Shown piece after piece: positions 3,584-25,317 of a stretch of DNA of 64,000 nt. The notes beneath the pieces are model-generated. The model was given only the letters and a program-made list of their open reading frames with translations. It was not told where the DNA came from and ran no database searches. The number at the start of each line of letters is the position of its first letter. Positions within the stretch are counted from its first letter, which is position 1. A program made the translations under genes and the position numbers. This DNA is from an uncultured Clostridia bacterium (GTDB lineage: Bacteria > Bacillota > Clostridia > TANB77 > CAG-508): contig CALXAV010000009.1 of the NCBI GenBank assembly GCA_944386385.1, positions 3,615 to 67,614 of the forward strand, read 5' to 3'.

Positions 3584-4462
3584 TTAATTACGTTCTTGTT
3601 CTTCTTTATTTTTAGTCATTAATTTCTTTTTTTCATAAGCTTTTATAATAATATGTCTTAAATCTTCAGGTATTAATTCTAAAGCTTTATTTCTTAACTT
3701 TCTTGGTATTCCATAATATGCTTCTGAAATTCCACCTACCATACAAGCAATTGTATCTGTATCTCCTCCAATTGATATAGCTTTTCTTATTGAATCTTCA
3801 AAATCATTAGATTGTAAAAATATAAATATTGCTTGTGGTACAGTAACTTTACTTGTTCCATTAAAAATATTATTTTCTTGTAATTCTTCCAAATTATAAT
3901 CTAAATCATATCCATATTTTTCAGTAACATATTTTTCTATTTTGTCTTTGCTTTCTTTCTTCCTTGCTAAAAATATTGTTTCTGCAAGGCATTTCGCTCC
4001 TTTTATAGCTTGTTCACTATTATGAGAAGGTATAGTTGCTTTTTTAGCCTCTTTTTCAACCGTTTCTAAATCACCAAATAAAAATGCTACAGGTGAAATT
4101 CTCATAGCTGCTCCATTTCCTTGACTTGTACCATTTTCATTAGTTTCAGAGTTTGCCCATTTTATAAATGATGGAGAAAATGCATTTTTAAAAAACCCTT
4201 CTCTTTCTACAGGTTTACTTCCATACTTTTTTCCATATTTTTTCAAAGCTTCTTTATAGTCTCTATTATAAATTATAGCTTCTGCAATTGCTATTGTTAA
4301 AAGTGAATCATCACTAATAAAGCTTTCGTCTGTTAATAATTTAGTAGATGAATTAAGTATGCTTCTTCTTCTATTTACATTTATAACACCATTTCTTGAA
4401 TCTAAGAATTCTTGATATTCATACCTCGTTCCTGCTAAATCTCCTATTATTCCTCCTAGCAC
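3584..4462 (-). CDS. ADP-ribosylglycohydrolase family protein (DraG/ARH-like)
   Basis: N-terminal GGIIGDLAG..YE and C-terminal GGDTDTIACMVGGISEAYYG motifs typical of PF03747. Confidence 0.8.
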   Translation of the reverse strand: MLGGIIGDLAGTRYEYQEFLDSRNGVINVNRRRSILNSSTKLLTDESFISDDSLLTIAIAEAIIYNRDYKEALKKYGKKYGSKPVEREGFFKNAFSPSFIKWANSETNENGTSQGNGAAMRISPVAFLFGDLETVEKEAKKATIPSHNSEQAIKGAKCLAETIFLARKKESKDKIEKYVTEKYGYDLDYNLEELQENNIFNGTSKVTVPQAIFIFLQSNDFEDSIRKAISIGGDTDTIACMVGGISEAYYGIPRKLRNKALELIPEDLRHIIIKAYEKKKLMTKNKEEQERN

Positions 4463-8907: not shown

Positions 8908-10608
8908 TTACGCTCCTAATTTATAAATATATATATTATTAAAAGTTTTCACTCTTTCATAAGTTACATCAACATTATAGTGTTCTTTAATAAATAAAAC
9001 TATGTGTTTTATATAATTTTGATAATAGTTACCAGACCACGAAACATCTCCATCTATTAAATATACATTTTCTTTTAATAAATCTAAGAATGTACCATTT
9101 AAATCATATCTATCTTTAAAGTCATAATAATTTTGGGTATACATATCCCAACCGCCCATAACTCTTAAGTTTGAGAAAGCTCCTTCTGGTGGCATCTCAT
9201 ATACGGAATATGTTAAATATCTATATTGAAGTGCTGGTACAGTATATAAGTACACATTTTCTTTATGCGAATTTGTATATTCTATTACATCTTTATAATT
9301 ACTATAGTCTTCTAACTGATAATCAAATTTATATAATCCTCCTGCAAATATTACACTTACAACTATTACAAAGATTGACATTGCTTTTAGTGTATTTAGT
9401 TTTTCACTATCTACTTTTTCATTATATTTTGTCAAATATAGAAACATTGCTATTCCCAGAATATACTCTGGTATTACAACTCTATGCATACTCCTATTTA
9501 CTATAATAAAAATGCTATTTACTGCAATCGCTACTAAAAATATAGCTAATATATAACCTCTTTTTTCTTTATTTGTATAAAATGCAACTAAAAAACTTGC
9601 GAAAAATAATACAATAATGTAGTGATAATTGTCTCTTAATTGGTCAATTAAATCATTTACAATGTCCTTTAATTTAAAATCATAATCATAAAGTCCTCCA
9701 TTGTTCATTTTATACTCTACTATTTTCTGTAAATTTTCTTTATTAAAGACATTTTCATCTCCAAAATTAAATGTATAGAACAAATAATGATCATTTTGAG
9801 ACCAGCCTATTTCGTCAAAAAGCTCCTTATTTTCTTCATATGAAACGTAAATATTATCTTGTAAAATAGTTCTTAGTCCATTAAACTCATTATAATTTTT
9901 ATAAATTTCATTGTTATAAAACATATAATTTGAAATGTATATCAAAACAGTTATTATTCCAAACACTAAATAGTTTTTTATTATTTTTACTATTTTTTCT
10001 TTTTCTATTTTTTTTCTTATTAGTAAAATTAGTTCATACACAAAATATAATGCAAAAAACGGAGCTACTATTAACAATGATTGTATTCTTGTCATTATTC
10101 CTATTACATATAATGACAAAAAACAAACTATATATTTTTTTCCATGTTTTTTTTCTTCTATATAGTCCATCATTACAAAAAAAGCCGTTAATATTAAAAG
10201 TACTGCAACAGATGTGTATTGTATCAATTGTAATAATGATGTATAACATACACTTGCAAATATAATATATACAATATAAGAAAATTTATTTTTACTTTTA
10301 TTTACTATTAAAGTTCCCATTATAGTAAAGCATATAAATTGCATTCCAAGCAAAAATATTGTATGCCAATTTATCATAGGCAAAATTCTAAAAAACAAGC
10401 TTAATATAAAACATAAAACTGGATAGATATATACTCCATGAATATTATAAGTTCCATCTAATCCTGAATATAGATTATATATAATAAAATCATCAACTTG
10501 TTCATATTTTATATCAAATATAAGATTTACAATAGCAAATATTAAAACATTAATACCTGCAATACAAATTAACGTTTTATAGTTATTTCTTATCTTTTCT
10601 AAAAACAT
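8908..10608 (-). CDS. Large polytopic membrane protein (566 aa), possibly a glycosyltransferase-C-like enzyme
   Basis: Many TM segments followed by a soluble C-terminal domain. The family assignment is uncertain. Confidence 0.5.
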   Translation of the reverse strand: MFLEKIRNNYKTLICIAGINVLIFAIVNLIFDIKYEQVDDFIIYNLYSGLDGTYNIHGVYIYPVLCFILSLFFRILPMINWHTIFLLGMQFICFTIMGTLIVNKSKNKFSYIVYIIFASVCYTSLLQLIQYTSVAVLLILTAFFVMMDYIEEKKHGKKYIVCFLSLYVIGIMTRIQSLLIVAPFFALYFVYELILLIRKKIEKEKIVKIIKNYLVFGIITVLIYISNYMFYNNEIYKNYNEFNGLRTILQDNIYVSYEENKELFDEIGWSQNDHYLFYTFNFGDENVFNKENLQKIVEYKMNNGGLYDYDFKLKDIVNDLIDQLRDNYHYIIVLFFASFLVAFYTNKEKRGYILAIFLVAIAVNSIFIIVNRSMHRVVIPEYILGIAMFLYLTKYNEKVDSEKLNTLKAMSIFVIVVSVIFAGGLYKFDYQLEDYSNYKDVIEYTNSHKENVYLYTVPALQYRYLTYSVYEMPPEGAFSNLRVMGGWDMYTQNYYDFKDRYDLNGTFLDLLKENVYLIDGDVSWSGNYYQNYIKHIVLFIKEHYNVDVTYERVKTFNNIYIYKLGA

Positions 10609-20773: not shown

Positions 20774-22006
20774 ATGGGAAAAGTTTTAGGTATCGTATGT
20801 GAATATAACCCATTTCATAATGGCCATTTGTATCATTTAGAGCAATCTAAAAAAGCAACTGGCTCTAATTATGTTGTGGCAATTATGAGTGGGAATTTTA
20901 CCCAGCGTGGTAGTACTGCTATTATTGATAAATGGTCAAGAACAGAGGCTGCTCTTAAATGTGGTGTTGATTTAGTAATAGAACTTCCTGTTCTATATGC
21001 TACATCTAGTGCTGAAAATTTTGCATATGGCGCTATTCATATTTTAGACTCACTTAAAATTGTAGATTATCTTGGATTTGGTAGTGAAACTTCTGACATT
21101 GAAGCATTAAGTAATATCGCAGATATATTACATAAAGAGCCTAAAGTTTATAAAAATATTTTAGCAGATGAATTAAAAAAGGGCGATTCTTTTCCTAAAG
21201 CAAGAGAGAATGCTTTATTAACATATTTAGGTAATGATAAAAGATATGCCAATGTTCTTTCTTCTCCTAACAATATTTTAGGAATTGAATATATAAAGGC
21301 TTTAAAAAAATATAAAAGTAATATCACTCCTATTTCTATTACAAGGTTTGAAGCAGGTTATAATGATTTAAATTATTCTGGAAATATTGCAAGTGCTACT
21401 GCTATTAGAAATATTATTAAAAATGGTAACTTTGATATTGCTAGAAGATTACTTCCACCACCTAGCTATGGTATTTTAATGGATAATATTAAACAAGGTC
21501 ATATAATTCCTGATTTGTCTGTTTTTGAAAGACAAATTATTTATAATTTAAGAAAAATGTCAACAGAAGAAATTGCTGAACTTCCAGATGTAACAGAAGG
21601 ATTAGAATTTTCTATAAAAAAAGTAGCAAATTCATGTAATACTATTCATGAGTTTTTAACACTTATAAAATCTAAGAGGTACACTTCTACTAGATTACAA
21701 AGGATTTTATTATATTCTTTACTTGGTATTACAAAAAAAGATATAGCTTTATCTAAAAAAGTTAATCCTTATGTTAGAGTTTTAGGTTTAAATAACAGAG
21801 GAAAATTTATAATATCAGAAATTGCAAAGGCAAATCCAAGACTTGAAATAATTACTTCTGTTAAGCGTTTTACTGACAAATCTACTAATAAGAATTTAAA
21901 ACTTATGCTTGATAAAGATATCTTCGCAACTAATGTATATACTATTGGTTATGATTTCAATTCTTGTAATAACTTAGACTTTACTAAAAAAATTGTTACA
22001 ATATAA
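20774..22006 (+). CDS. tmcAL: tRNA(Met) cytidine acetate ligase TmcAL (YlbM/UPF0348)
   Basis: [23 protein letters not shown]-terminus. Start at 20774 after RBS AAGGAAGG. Confidence 0.8.
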
Positions 22007-22046
22007 AAAAGATTACTAAAAATATAATTTAGTAATCTTTTATTTT
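22007..22046 (+). terminator. tmcAL terminator
   Basis: AAAAGATTACTAAA / TTTAGTAATCTTTT stem followed by a T-run. Confidence 0.7.
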
Positions 22047-22084
22047 AACATTTAAACAAAAAAAGATACTTTTAAGTATCTTTT

Positions 22085-22395
22085 TGGTGGGCAGGGAAGG
22101 ATTCGAACCTTCGTACTCAAATGAGAACAGATTTCTTACTACTATAGTTTTCACTACCAATTTCTTGTTTGTAGTCTGGACTTTCTCTTTATCTTAAAAT
22201 TAAGATACTAGGTATAAAGTCTCTACACTCGGAAATTTCTTTCCTAGCTCGGGATTGCCATCAGCCTTACCTGTTAAGGATTCCCCGAATTAGCCTAGTT
22301 ATCATCATACAATCACTTGTATGAGCTGCAAATTTAGGTTTTGGAATAAACCAAAGACTACAGTCTGCCGCCTTTAGCCACTCGGCCACCTACCC
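22085..22395 (-). tRNA. tRNA-Tyr(GUA), class II, interrupted by an intron in the anticodon loop
   Basis: 5' exon GGGTAGGTGGCCGAGTGGCTAAAGGCGGCAGACTGT (22395-22360) plus 3' exon AAATCTGTTCTCATTTGAGTACGAAGGTTCGAATCCTTCCCTGCCCACCA (22134-22085) fold into an 86-nt cloverleaf with loop CTGTAAA, a long variable arm and an encoded CCA. Confidence 0.85.
22135..22359 (-). ncRNA. Group I intron (IC3-like) within tRNA-Tyr
   Basis: Core blocks AAACCTAAATTTGCAG, GATGGCAATCCCGAGCTAGG, GTGTAGAGACTTTATACC and AAAGAGAAAGTCCAGACTAC parallel the Anabaena tRNA-Leu and Azoarcus tRNA-Ile introns. U precedes the 5' splice site and the intron ends in G. Confidence 0.75.
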
Positions 22396-22407: not shown

Positions 22408-22484
22408 TGGTGCTCCCTCAAGGATTCGAACCTTGGACCCACTGGTTATGAGCCAGTTGCTCTGACCAACTGAGCTAAGGGAGC
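22408..22484 (-). tRNA. tRNA with anticodon CAU (elongator Met or lysidine-modified Ile2; not an initiator)
   Basis: GCTCCCTTAGCTCAGTTGGTCAGAGCAACTGGCTCATAACCAGTGGGTCCAAGGTTCGAATCCTTGAGGGAGCACCA. Full cloverleaf, G1-C72 pair, encoded CCA. Confidence 0.9.
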
Positions 22485-22511: not shown

Positions 22512-22540
22512 AGTATAAACCATTTTTATATAATTGTCAA
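22512..22540 (-). promoter_or_regulatory. Promoter of the tRNA(CAU)-tRNA(Tyr) operon
   Basis: Minus strand TTGACA, 17 nt, TATACT, about 25 nt upstream of the first tRNA. Confidence 0.65.
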
Positions 22541-24107: not shown

Positions 24108-24300
24108 GTGAACTACCCATTGTCTAAAGCCAATGGGCTTCCTGCTTCATAGACCTCGTAACCTACTATCTCCACAGGCGTTAATTTGGGCAGTCCCAGC
24201 CCTATATTTTTCTCTATGCTATTTTTCTTAATCCTTCCATTAGGATATTTGTCGCAGCATTTATATCCCTGTCATGCTTTGCTTTGCACTTAGGACATGT
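24108..24300 (-). ncRNA. Predicted TnpB guide RNA (omega/reRNA) scaffold region; 5' boundary approximate
   Basis: By analogy with characterised TnpB elements, the RNA spans the tnpB 3' end to the right-end boundary. The structured 106-nt non-coding tail ends in a hairpin plus TAGTTCAC. Confidence 0.35.
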
Positions 24301-25317
24301 CCATTTTCTGACTGCCAAATCTTTTGTATCTACATTCTGATATCCACAAACAGAACACAACTGACTACTGGCATAAAAAGTATCTATTTTTATATATTTT
24401 CTTCCATTCCATATAGCCTTATATTCTAATTGTCTTGTAAGCTCATTCCATGATGCATCTATTATTGATTTTGCTAGATGATGATTTTTTACCATGTTCT
24501 TTATCTGTAAATTTTCTGTAACTATCACTTGGTTTTCGCTGATAATCTTATTAGAAACTTTATGCAGATAATCTTTTCTAATGTTATTTATTTTCTCGTG
24601 ACATAATGCTATTTCTTTTTTCTTCTTTTGGTAATTTTTACTTCCTTTTTTCTTATGTGCTAACTCTCTTTGTTTCCTTGAAAGTTTTCTCTCGTATTTC
24701 TTTATTGTCTTTGGATTTTCATATTTCTCTCCTTCTGATGTAATACATAAATCCTTAATTCCCAAATCTAATCCTATATTTTGTTTTGCATGTGGTAATT
24801 CTTCATGCTCTGTTTCTACTAGTATTGACACATAGTATTTCCCACTTGGAACTTGCGATACTGTTACTGATTTTATCTGCCCATTAAATTTTCTGTGTAA
24901 TTTTGATTTTACTTTCTTTAATTTTGGTAGTTTTATTTTTCCATTCTCATAATCTACAGTTATATTTCCATTAGTATAATTCGTAGTATATGATTTATGG
25001 TTATCATGCTTACTTTTAAACTTTGGATACCCTGCATTTTCTTTGAAAAATTTCTGATAGGCAGTATCCATATTATATATTGCATTAGTTAAAGCAAACT
25101 TATCCACATCCTTTAGCCATTCGTATTCTTTCTTTAACTTTCTGTTACAATAATTGTTGCAGTCTATTTTACTAACAGTTTTCTTCTCTTTCTCATAACA
25201 TTCTTTTCGATATGCTAATGTTTGATTATAAACAAAACGGCAACAGCCAAATGTTTTTACTATCTGTTCTTTCTGCTCTTTATTGGGATATATTCTATAT
25301 TTATATGTTTTTAACAT
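24214..25317 (-). CDS. tnpB: RNA-guided endonuclease TnpB (IS605 OrfB family)
   Basis: MLKTYKYRIYPNKEQ N-terminus, GLDLGI (RuvC-I), VTENL, CSVCGYQ..CPKCKAKHDRDINAA zinc finger and RuvC-III. Start at 25317 after RBS AAAGGAGGTGA. Confidence 0.85.
   Translation of the reverse strand: MLKTYKYRIYPNKEQKEQIVKTFGCCRFVYNQTLAYRKECYEKEKKTVSKIDCNNYCNRKLKKEYEWLKDVDKFALTNAIYNMDTAYQKFFKENAGYPKFKSKHDNHKSYTTNYTNGNITVDYENGKIKLPKLKKVKSKLHRKFNGQIKSVTVSQVPSGKYYVSILVETEHEELPHAKQNIGLDLGIKDLCITSEGEKYENPKTIKKYERKLSRKQRELAHKKKGSKNYQKKKKEIALCHEKINNIRKDYLHKVSNKIISENQVIVTENLQIKNMVKNHHLAKSIIDASWNELTRQLEYKAIWNGRKYIKIDTFYASSQLCSVCGYQNVDTKDLAVRKWTCPKCKAKHDRDINAATNILMEGLRKIA

Follow-up and report, generated by a model that had tools for sequence, protein, structure and literature searches.

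The 64,000-nt window analyzed here (positions 3,615 to 67,614 of contig CALXAV010000009.1, assembly GCA_944386385.1, from an uncultured Clostridia bacterium) contains on its minus strand a class II tRNA-Tyr(GUA) gene that, with a probability of roughly 90%, is interrupted by an IC3-type (bacterial tRNA) group I intron of 225 nt, located between U35 and A36 and without an open reading frame (ORF). ARAGORN with intron detection reports the gene as tRNA-Tyr(gta) i(37,225) at 22395-22085 (-). This corresponds exactly to the original prediction, made from the sequence alone, in which removal of 22135-22359 leaves a class II tRNA-Tyr of 86 nt including its CCA. Exon 2 supplies A36-A37-A38, the 3' strand of the anticodon stem, the long variable arm, the T arm, the 3' strand of the acceptor and the CCA, and the 86-nt sequence spliced in silico folds as a clean class II tRNA-Tyr with G1-C72 and A73. 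Default ARAGORN and Rfam at the gathering threshold report the tRNA-Met at 22484-22408 and miss the split tRNA-Tyr, and no second tRNA-Tyr is present within the 64-kb window. The prediction that the insert is a group I (IC3-like) intron is borne out by the Rfam alignment, by covariation, by published seed sequences and by genes in which the insertion site is empty.

These empty sites are found in related bacteria. At 22 fetched loci from other species, an uninterrupted tRNA-Tyr equals the predicted ligated product base for base, which places the reading of a class II tRNA-Tyr with an insert at 22135-22359 far beyond chance. The nearest relative found (L010; neighbor protein about 87% identical) is intron-less, and its nucleotide alignment with the window stops precisely at 22134. 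The insert starts after U35 and its terminal base is G, so that the host anticodon arrangement is CUGU/a...g/AAA. The predicted ligated junction reads ...GGCAGACUGU|AAAUCUGUUC... (CUGU|AAAUCUG), with the loop restored to CUGUAAA. In the window this junction has a 1-nt ambiguity, as the first intron base is A here and G in most family members. Because the members with a G at this position carry no such ambiguity, the junction is fixed at U35|A36, with U at -1 and G at omega.

The fold of the intron was assessed with a hand-built P1-P9 model tested on alignment A1, which comprises 38 distinct Tyr-hosted pre-tRNAs. The 66 intron pairs of the model are formed in 97.8% of the cells, versus 35-45% when the 3' partners are slid by one to three columns. 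Double-sided (compensatory) changes occur in 23 pairs versus three to seven in the slid controls, and none of 500 column shuffles matches the observed value on any of five measures. The compensatory pairs are distributed over P2, P3, P4, P5, P6a, P8, P9a and P9b (Table 1). P4 pairs in every sequence (100%), with G-C replaced by A-U at one pair, and one P5 pair is U-A in 26 sequences and C-G in 12. RNAalifold, given only the alignment, recovers P2, P4, P5, P5a, P6/P6a, P7, P8, P9, P9a and P9b but not P1 and P3, and also returns the acceptor, variable and T arms of the tRNA; the minimum free energy structure of the single sequence contains most of the same helices. No variation is seen at U -1, in the guide UUGCAG or at the terminal G (38/38), in agreement with the predicted splice after U35 and the predicted terminal G. 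A simple P9 as drawn in Rfam shows no covariation and is disrupted in those sequences that carry compensated changes in P9b; the P9/P9a/P9b arrangement fits better.

Not every element of the original prediction is retained in this model. The P8-like ATCTTAA/TTAAGAT hairpin recurs as P8, with compensatory changes in three of its six pairs. The TTTGG/CCAAA hairpin, which had been taken for P2, falls in the P1 loop extension, where it is 81.6% paired, not conserved as drawn and shows zero covariation. Three of the four blocks recognized from known tRNA introns hold, while the remaining one, AAACCTAAAT, is part of the P1 extension and no homologue of the Azoarcus J4/5-P5 block GAAACCUAAGC, the window counterpart of which is GGGGAAUCCUUAAC.

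Table 1. Features of the split tRNA-Tyr locus and its surroundings (positions in the window; pairing values refer to alignment A1).
Feature	Position	Strand	Basis or remark
Complete split tRNA-Tyr(GUA) gene, 311 nt, mature 86 nt with encoded CCA	22085..22395	-	ARAGORN -i
Exon 1, 36 nt, GGGUAGGUGGCCGAGUGGCUAAAGGCGGCAGACUGU: acceptor 5' strand, D arm, anticodon stem 5' strand, C32-U33-G34-U35, the last being U (-1), invariant as T36 of A1	22360..22395	-	
Predicted group I intron, 225 nt, AGUCUUUGG...GUAGUAAG, without ORF	22135..22359	-	Rfam RF00028, covariation
Exon 2, 50 nt with CCA, AAAUCUGUUCUCAUUUGAGUACGAAGGUUCGAAUCCUUCCCUGCCCACCA	22085..22134	-	
P1 5' strand: exon CUGU + intron AG; 5' splice site after U at 22360	22358..22363	-	38/38 paired, six pairs 100%, U·G invariant
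Internal guide sequence UUGCAG (P1 3' strand)	22326..22331	-	Invariant T65-C71 in A1
P10 candidate: AUUU, overlapping the 5' end of the guide, with exon 2 AAAU	22330..22333	-	
P1 loop extension hairpin GGUU.../...AACC, ~26 nt	22332..22357	-	GGUU/AACC 94.7% paired
P2 hairpin UCAUACAA-GUGA-UUGUAUGA, GNRA loop	22305..22324	-	6/8 compensatory, 99% of cells paired, also de novo
P3 5' strand CUAGG, partner 22208-22212	22294..22298	-	3/5 compensatory, 99.5% of cells paired
P3 3' strand CCUAG, closing the P3/P7 pseudoknot	22208..22212	-	
P4-P5-P5a domain: UCGGGG.../...UCCCGA; P5 CC/GG; receptor-like CCUUAAC...GAUGG	22249..22288	-	Also de novo
P6/P6a hairpin, GAAA loop	22227..22248	-	5/8 compensatory, 99.7% of cells paired
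P7 5' strand G-(A bulge)-GACUU, inside conserved GUGUAGAGACU; putative guanosine-binding helix	22217..22223	-	Invariant in family
P7 3' strand AAGUCC	22178..22183	-	
P8 hairpin AUCUUA-AUUU-UAAGAU	22191..22206	-	3/6 compensatory
P9 three-way junction: P9 ACUAC/GUAGU, P9a CAA-GAAA-UUG, P9b UAGU-GAAA-ACUA	22138..22175	-	De novo + covariation
Terminal G (omega-G), 3' splice site after it	22135	-	G261 invariant 38/38
tRNA-Met(CAU), 12 nt upstream of tRNA-Tyr	22408..22484	-	ARAGORN, Rfam
Sigma-70-like promoter TTGACA-17-TATACT, 11/12 matches, upstream of tRNA-Met	22512..22540	-	Consensus match only
AT-rich hairpin + U-run directly after CCA; probable terminator	22052..22084	-	Read from sequence
HIGH_NTase1 (TmcAL-like) gene, convergent to and adjoining the tRNA-Met/tRNA-Tyr operon	20774-22006	+	
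TnpB-type gene (OrfB_IS605 + Cas12f1-like TNB + HTH_OrfB_IS605), ~1.8 kb from the tRNA operon, adjoining the MFS gene	24214-25317	-	

Several observations weigh against a group I intron at this site, among them the performance of the Rfam model that the original prediction had put forward as a check. In a 701-nt scan, Intron_gpI (RF00028) matches 22352-22154 (-) with 40.8 bits (E = 6.4e-9) over model positions 1-253, which is the full model, but this score remains below the Rfam gathering score of 50, and the match is absent from the whole-window Rfam scans both at the gathering score and at E <= 0.01. The lack of a significant Intron_gpI match, which the prediction had named as grounds for its own refutation, was thereby nearly observed. 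At 17 loci with related introns, none reaches the gathering score. As the score is below gathering, is lost in whole-window scans and related loci fail too, the model match taken alone is suggestive and short of decisive. Nonetheless, the alignment covers the full model and the covariation is strong, for which reason we read the loss in the whole-window scans as a filter or threshold effect. The near-miss is a weakness of the model and the filters and not of the intron, and the gathering threshold is an annotation cut-off and not a biological defining feature. The preprint by Williams (2020, bioRxiv 10.1101/2020.01.27.920355) states that none of the 12 Intron_gpI seed sequences is bacterial.

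Other points on the same side are that the intron, taken by itself, stands out only modestly in folding stability (z = -1.97), that P10 is weak, with three invariant pairs and a fourth pair formed in 10 of the 38 sequences, and that all carriers are uncultured metagenome-assembled genomes (MAGs) or metagenome contigs. In addition, P1, P7 and P9 are unvarying within the Tyr family, and covariation is uninformative for them there because of this invariance; the limited variation consists of a change from A-U to G·U at P1 position +1 and of one P9 pair changing from U-A to U·G. Across classes, an L-INS-i alignment of the window with ten seeds of the Williams supplement, including Leu.3Ug, Arg.5Ug, fMet.2Ug and Ile2.5Ug (Azoarcus type), does show covariation at the last pair of P7 (ACUU/AAGU, ACUA/UAGU, ACUG/CAGU) and in P9 (ACUAC/GUAGU versus ACCAC/GUGGU).

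Other intron types do not match the insert. It contains no real ORF, as the overlapping ORFs of 37-43 amino acids are spurious and extend into the exons, and no homing-endonuclease, transposase or maturase-like ORF is found in it. The lack of an internal ORF rules out a mobile homing-endonuclease intron or an IStron for this intron. A protein-spliced bulge-helix-bulge intron of the archaeal and eukaryotic kind, which is short, usually located at 37/38 and excised by a splicing endonuclease, is ruled out by the 35/36 position, the length of 225 nt, the ribozyme core and the bacterial host.

Among the alternatives, the one that holds up best is that the group I fold is kept but that splicing in vivo needs a host protein cofactor or chaperone, as for some organellar group I introns with CYT-18 or maturases. 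The AT-rich composition of the intron (35.6% GC), its modest z-score and several short A-U helices are in line with such a dependence. We nevertheless regard it as quite unlikely: bacterial tRNA introns of the classical kind, which share this architecture, are self-splicing according to the literature, the peripheral stabilizers to be expected if the intron folds on its own (GNRA L2, GAAA L9b and receptor-like P5) are conserved, and the intron lacks a maturase-like ORF. It is highly improbable that the intron is decayed and inactive and the tRNA-Tyr copy a pseudogene, with another tRNA-Tyr elsewhere decoding tyrosine. A 64-kb view does leave room for a second tRNA-Tyr and the Rfam score is sub-threshold, but the 38 homologues display strong purifying selection with compensatory changes and an invariant U-1, guide, P7 core and omega-G. 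Moreover, both exons are intact, their sequence being that of apparently functional genes in 22 species, and a scan for exon 2 finds no second tRNA-Tyr match in any intron-carrying MAG among the matches listed, which is weak evidence on copy number. Finally, a chance resemblance or misassembly, i.e., an unrelated insertion or a chimeric contig between tRNA halves, as the breaks of several metagenome contigs at or near the exon-intron junctions might suggest, is already refuted by an independent assembly (L001) with 100% identity to the window along 5.6 kb including the intron, by recurrence in at least 11 species-level MAGs and dozens of contigs from different studies, and by covariation, which cannot come from an artifact.

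The contig breaks themselves are explained by branching of the assembly graph, since co-occurring relatives have intron-less genes with the same exons. Contigs L005, L007, L006 and L008 end at window 22134 and 22388: metagenome contigs stop exactly at the exon 2/intron junction, and Logan unitigs stop 30 nt upstream of intron base 1, which is k-1 at k = 31. The breaks were also considered as a sign of an intron-less second copy in the same genome, but co-occurring relatives with identical exons account for them just as well, so that the breaks do not decide the copy number.

Given a group I intron at this site, the following course of events can be proposed. The gene would be transcribed with the upstream tRNA-Met from a promoter that resembles the sigma-70 consensus. 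P1 arises from pairing of the guide UUGCAG with C32-U35 and the two bases that open the intron; this pairing is invariant in the 38 homologues, and the U·G wobble of U35 within it would mark the 5' splice site. The covariation indicates that the intron folds into a P3-P8 core with a P3/P7 pseudoknot, with the GNRA-capped P2 and P9/P9a/P9b at the periphery. By analogy with the chemistry of the group I family, a free guanosine at P7 would attack after U35, and the terminal G at 22135 would then occupy the same P7 site. A short P10 can form between the guide and the AAAU of exon 2, and the 3'-OH of U35 would, again by analogy, join A36 and restore the loop CUGUAAA. The predicted product is identical to the tRNA-Tyr that 22 related species encode without an intron. 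On an evolutionary scale, precise loss and/or occasional gain may take place through exon-flank recombination or through reverse splicing into CUGU-containing anticodon loops.

The classes of bacterial tRNA group I introns have been raised from four (Leu.3Ug, Arg.5Ug, fMet.2Ug and Ile2.5Ug) to 21, with Tyr.4Ug among the 17 new ones, and the underlying seed alignment contains Mba143.Tyr.4Ug, Wba81.Asp.4Ug and Pam37.Asn.4Ug (Williams 2020, bioRxiv 10.1101/2020.01.27.920355). The window gene has a Tyr host, an insertion after the fourth anticodon-loop nucleotide, U at -1 and G at omega, and is thus Tyr.4Ug in this nomenclature. The presentation of the Tyr host as unusual in the original prediction was overstated, since the class is in the preprint of 2020 and the lineage is common in the MAGs and metagenomes of gut Clostridia. 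Judging from the sequences, the intron belongs to a lineage distinct from the published Tyr seed. Mba143.Tyr.4Ug and the window have in common a tRNA-Tyr GUA host, the CUGU/AAA site, U at -1, the omega G and the guide UUGCAG. The seed, however, is 209 nt long, and has GGGAUAACGGUGAAAGCU as J3/4-P4 and a simple P9 hairpin, whereas the window has a long P1 extension, a CUAAUUCGGGGAA core and the P9/P9a/P9b junction. A Mba143.Tyr.4Ug-like intron occurs at the same site of a tRNA-Tyr in a Peregrinibacteria (candidate phyla radiation) MAG (L085, ~2278-2574, +), which ARAGORN mislabels as Ser(tga).

In the ten-seed alignment, the blocks AAUUCGGGGAA, AUGGCAAUCCCGAGC, GUGUAGAGACU, AAGAGAAAGUCCAGAC and GGUAGUGAAAACUAUAGUAG-UAAG of the window and the seeds are in register, and pairwise identity to the published seeds points to no single closest class. 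The classical IC3 introns (cyanobacterial and plastid Leu(UAA), Azoarcus Ile(CAU), Agrobacterium Arg(CCU) and cyanobacterial fMet) resemble the window intron in their length of ~200-250 nt, lack of an ORF, location in the anticodon loop, P2 with a GNRA loop and the first four of these blocks. The Leu, Arg and fMet seeds likewise have a P9 three-way junction with a GAAA-capped P9b ending in ..GUAG-UAAG, whereas the Azoarcus seed has a simple P9. The window intron differs in J3/4 (CUAA instead of CAAA), in the outer stem of P6 (GCU/AGU instead of GCC/GGU), in its P1 loop extension of ~26 nt and in its host, an AT-rich gut Clostridia lineage and not a cyanobacterium or proteobacterium. Its insertion site is 35/36; in the nomenclature of Williams, the Leu introns are at 34/35 and those of Arg, Ile and fMet at other positions of the loop. 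The IC3 label stems from the database that Williams cites for the four classical classes and is assigned here by alignment to the seeds. The intron displays the corresponding features: it is compact and lacks a P5abc extension, its P2 is GNRA-capped, the J4/5, J6/7 and J8/7 blocks are conserved, and the P9 domain contains a GAAA-capped hairpin.

The Asn.4Ug (Pam37) and Asp.4Ug (Wba81) seeds and the gut Asn(GUU) copies are also cut after U35 in a CUGU loop and have a GCAG guide core and the exact core motif GTGTAGAGACTTTAYACC...AGTCCAGACTAC. Wba81.Asp.4Ug additionally shares CUAGGCUAAUUCGGGGAA and UAUACCUAG with the window. The Asn-hosted copies nonetheless form a separate clade, are ~63-64% identical to the window and have GGCUAAAUCGGUGAAAC as P4-P6. 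In the literature searched, Williams (2020) is the only source found for bacterial group I introns with a Tyr host, and there is no report of intron-split phage tRNAs or of such genes in phage tRNA arrays. Tyr introns are also unreported in a paper on cyanobacterial tRNAs. The authors of tRNAscan-SE 2.0 note that their tool is not designed for detecting such introns.

The distribution of the intron was mapped in genome collections and metagenomes, for which all counts are lower bounds. When each GTDB species is represented by one genome, a 24-nt pattern from exon 2 matches at least 119 loci. Among the matches listed, ten uncultured Clostridia, Clostridium or Eubacteriales MAGs carry an intron of 224-229 nt at the same tRNA-Tyr position, an eleventh carrier (L022) has its intron cut off by the contig end, and about 25 related MAGs have the tRNA-Met to tRNA-Tyr arrangement without an intron. 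An intron-only pattern is present in at least 120 metagenome contigs, mostly from gut, and in at least six viral contigs. With the core pattern, at least 92 distinct introns with an assignable host are obtained, namely 59 in Tyr, 26 in Asn(GUU), six in Leu(UAA) and one in another tRNA-Tyr type. The split sites are CUGU|UAA in Asn(GUU) and CUU|AAAA in Leu(UAA), and many of the split Asn genes are misnamed by ARAGORN as Phe(aaa), Thr(cgt), Ser(tga) or Trp(cca). Metagenome loci with an Asn(GUU) gene split as CUGU|UAA and the same core motif include L137, L147, L153, L182, L140, L129 and L176; in L137, the split gene comes after a 5S rRNA gene. At another locus (L161, ~95-480, +), a 23S rRNA-like 3' end runs into the middle of an Asn-type intron followed by Asn exon 2, probably as a result of chimeric assembly or rearrangement.

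The intron phylogeny largely tracks the host tRNA. Bacterial Tyr introns form one clade with at least 78% identity to the window, and Tyr-to-Asn host switching is visible only in one mixed clade (L248, L249, L195 and L233) of two phage Tyr introns, another Tyr intron and an Asn intron. Within the Clostridia, the intron is sporadic among close relatives, and the nearest relative found (L010) is without it. The tree of the neighbor gene reads ((window+, L010-), (L082+, L094+)), in which the sign denotes presence or absence of the intron; outside this clade follow several intron-less species, then the distant intron-carrying L104 and then two intron-less ones. Precise loss and/or gain is therefore required by this patchy distribution. 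Identical copies of the neighbor protein are found in metagenome contigs only, one of which is L001.

Split tRNA-Tyr genes are not confined to bacteria. Two IMG/VR viral contigs, L248 (2444-2719, -) and L249 (9797-10063, -), contain a class II tRNA-Tyr(GUA) in a dense tRNA array that is split as CUGU|AAA by an intron of 189 and 180 nt, respectively, with the guide UUGCAG and ~63% identity to the window. Identical copies of these phage genes are present in L250 and L253, and L249 also encodes a tail-fiber-like ORF and a free-standing HNH endonuclease. A recent exchange of the intron from phages to Clostridia is unsupported, given this identity of ~63% and the separate, mixed clade of the phage introns. 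With blastn, the window locus gives only short matches to phages, which cover the 3' intron domain or exon 1, and no match to plasmids. A related intron is present at L210 (~8734, -) and L252 (~1004, -), where exon 2 starts with AAAAUCC as in tRNA-Leu(UAA). It holds an ORF that ends in ...YLCPNCHALTETYRGRN just upstream of the P7 block and that looks, by its sequence, like an HNH homing endonuclease. The intron family would therefore have ORF-bearing, possibly mobile members. On the viral contig L252, a ROOL RNA (Rfam RF03087, 263 bits; 10008-10599, -) lies beside the tRNA array.

The tRNA-Tyr gene also serves as an integration site. In L032, an intron-less tRNA-Tyr adjoins a tyrosine-recombinase gene, and a 56-nt partial tRNA copy (A31 to CCA) is found 6.7 kb away (island coordinates in L032: 1125-1180, -; 6594-7811, +; 7887-8000, -). 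By its sequence, L032 carries an integrated island, and the anticodon loop, i.e., the site of intron insertion, lies within its crossover region. A shorter partial copy, from the T arm to the CCA, is present in L107 (3524-3553). Because the L032 island crosses over at the tRNA-Tyr anticodon loop, the split allele could be immune to such elements. The intron position may then matter beyond selfish persistence, in that a split allele might resist integrases that target the anticodon loop, and the CUGU-loop tRNA genes of phages and hosts (Tyr and Asn, and Asp in the Williams seeds) may form one reverse-splicing pool; we consider this idea speculative and rather unlikely. An integrase of the L032 type adjoins three of 46 intron-less versus none of 48 intron-containing genes, a difference that is not significant, and distant integrases adjoin both intron-less and intron-containing tRNA-Tyr genes.

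The split gene is invisible to default ARAGORN, to Rfam at its gathering score and to a whole-window scan by E-value. Because standard annotation misses it, carrier Clostridia MAGs would seem to lack tRNA-Tyr, an apparent loss that affects checks of the tRNA complement of MAGs and the inference of codon usage; ARAGORN with intron detection or a family-specific model remedies this. Should no other tRNA-Tyr gene exist, these abundant uncultured gut bacteria could decode tyrosine only through a ribozyme reaction, which would make them a clean natural test of the tolerance for an essential self-splicing step. The presence/absence polymorphism is well sampled among close relatives with identical exons, and, together with the related introns in Tyr, Asn and Leu tRNAs and in phage tRNA arrays, it is useful for the study of intron gain, precise loss and host switching.

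The window has a GC content of 28%. The tRNA-Met and tRNA-Tyr genes are probably co-transcribed, and the same Met-then-Tyr order is found again in many relatives. A terminator scan requiring at least three G-C pairs does not call the hairpin at 22052-22084. The HIGH_NTase1 family, to which the convergent neighbor belongs, includes TmcAL, a modifier of elongator tRNA-Met, and the synteny of this gene with the tRNA-Met/tRNA-Tyr pair is seen in 11 fetched loci. Other neighbors are genes for an RNase H, a major facilitator superfamily (MFS) transporter and the TnpB/IS605 OrfB protein. In some strains with an identical neighbor gene (L002, 4269-4457; L007, 2820-3008), an insertion of ~190 nt is located between window positions 22041 and 22007, downstream of the HIGH_NTase1 gene, with a copy of the duplicated 35-nt terminator hairpin (window 22007-22041) on either side.

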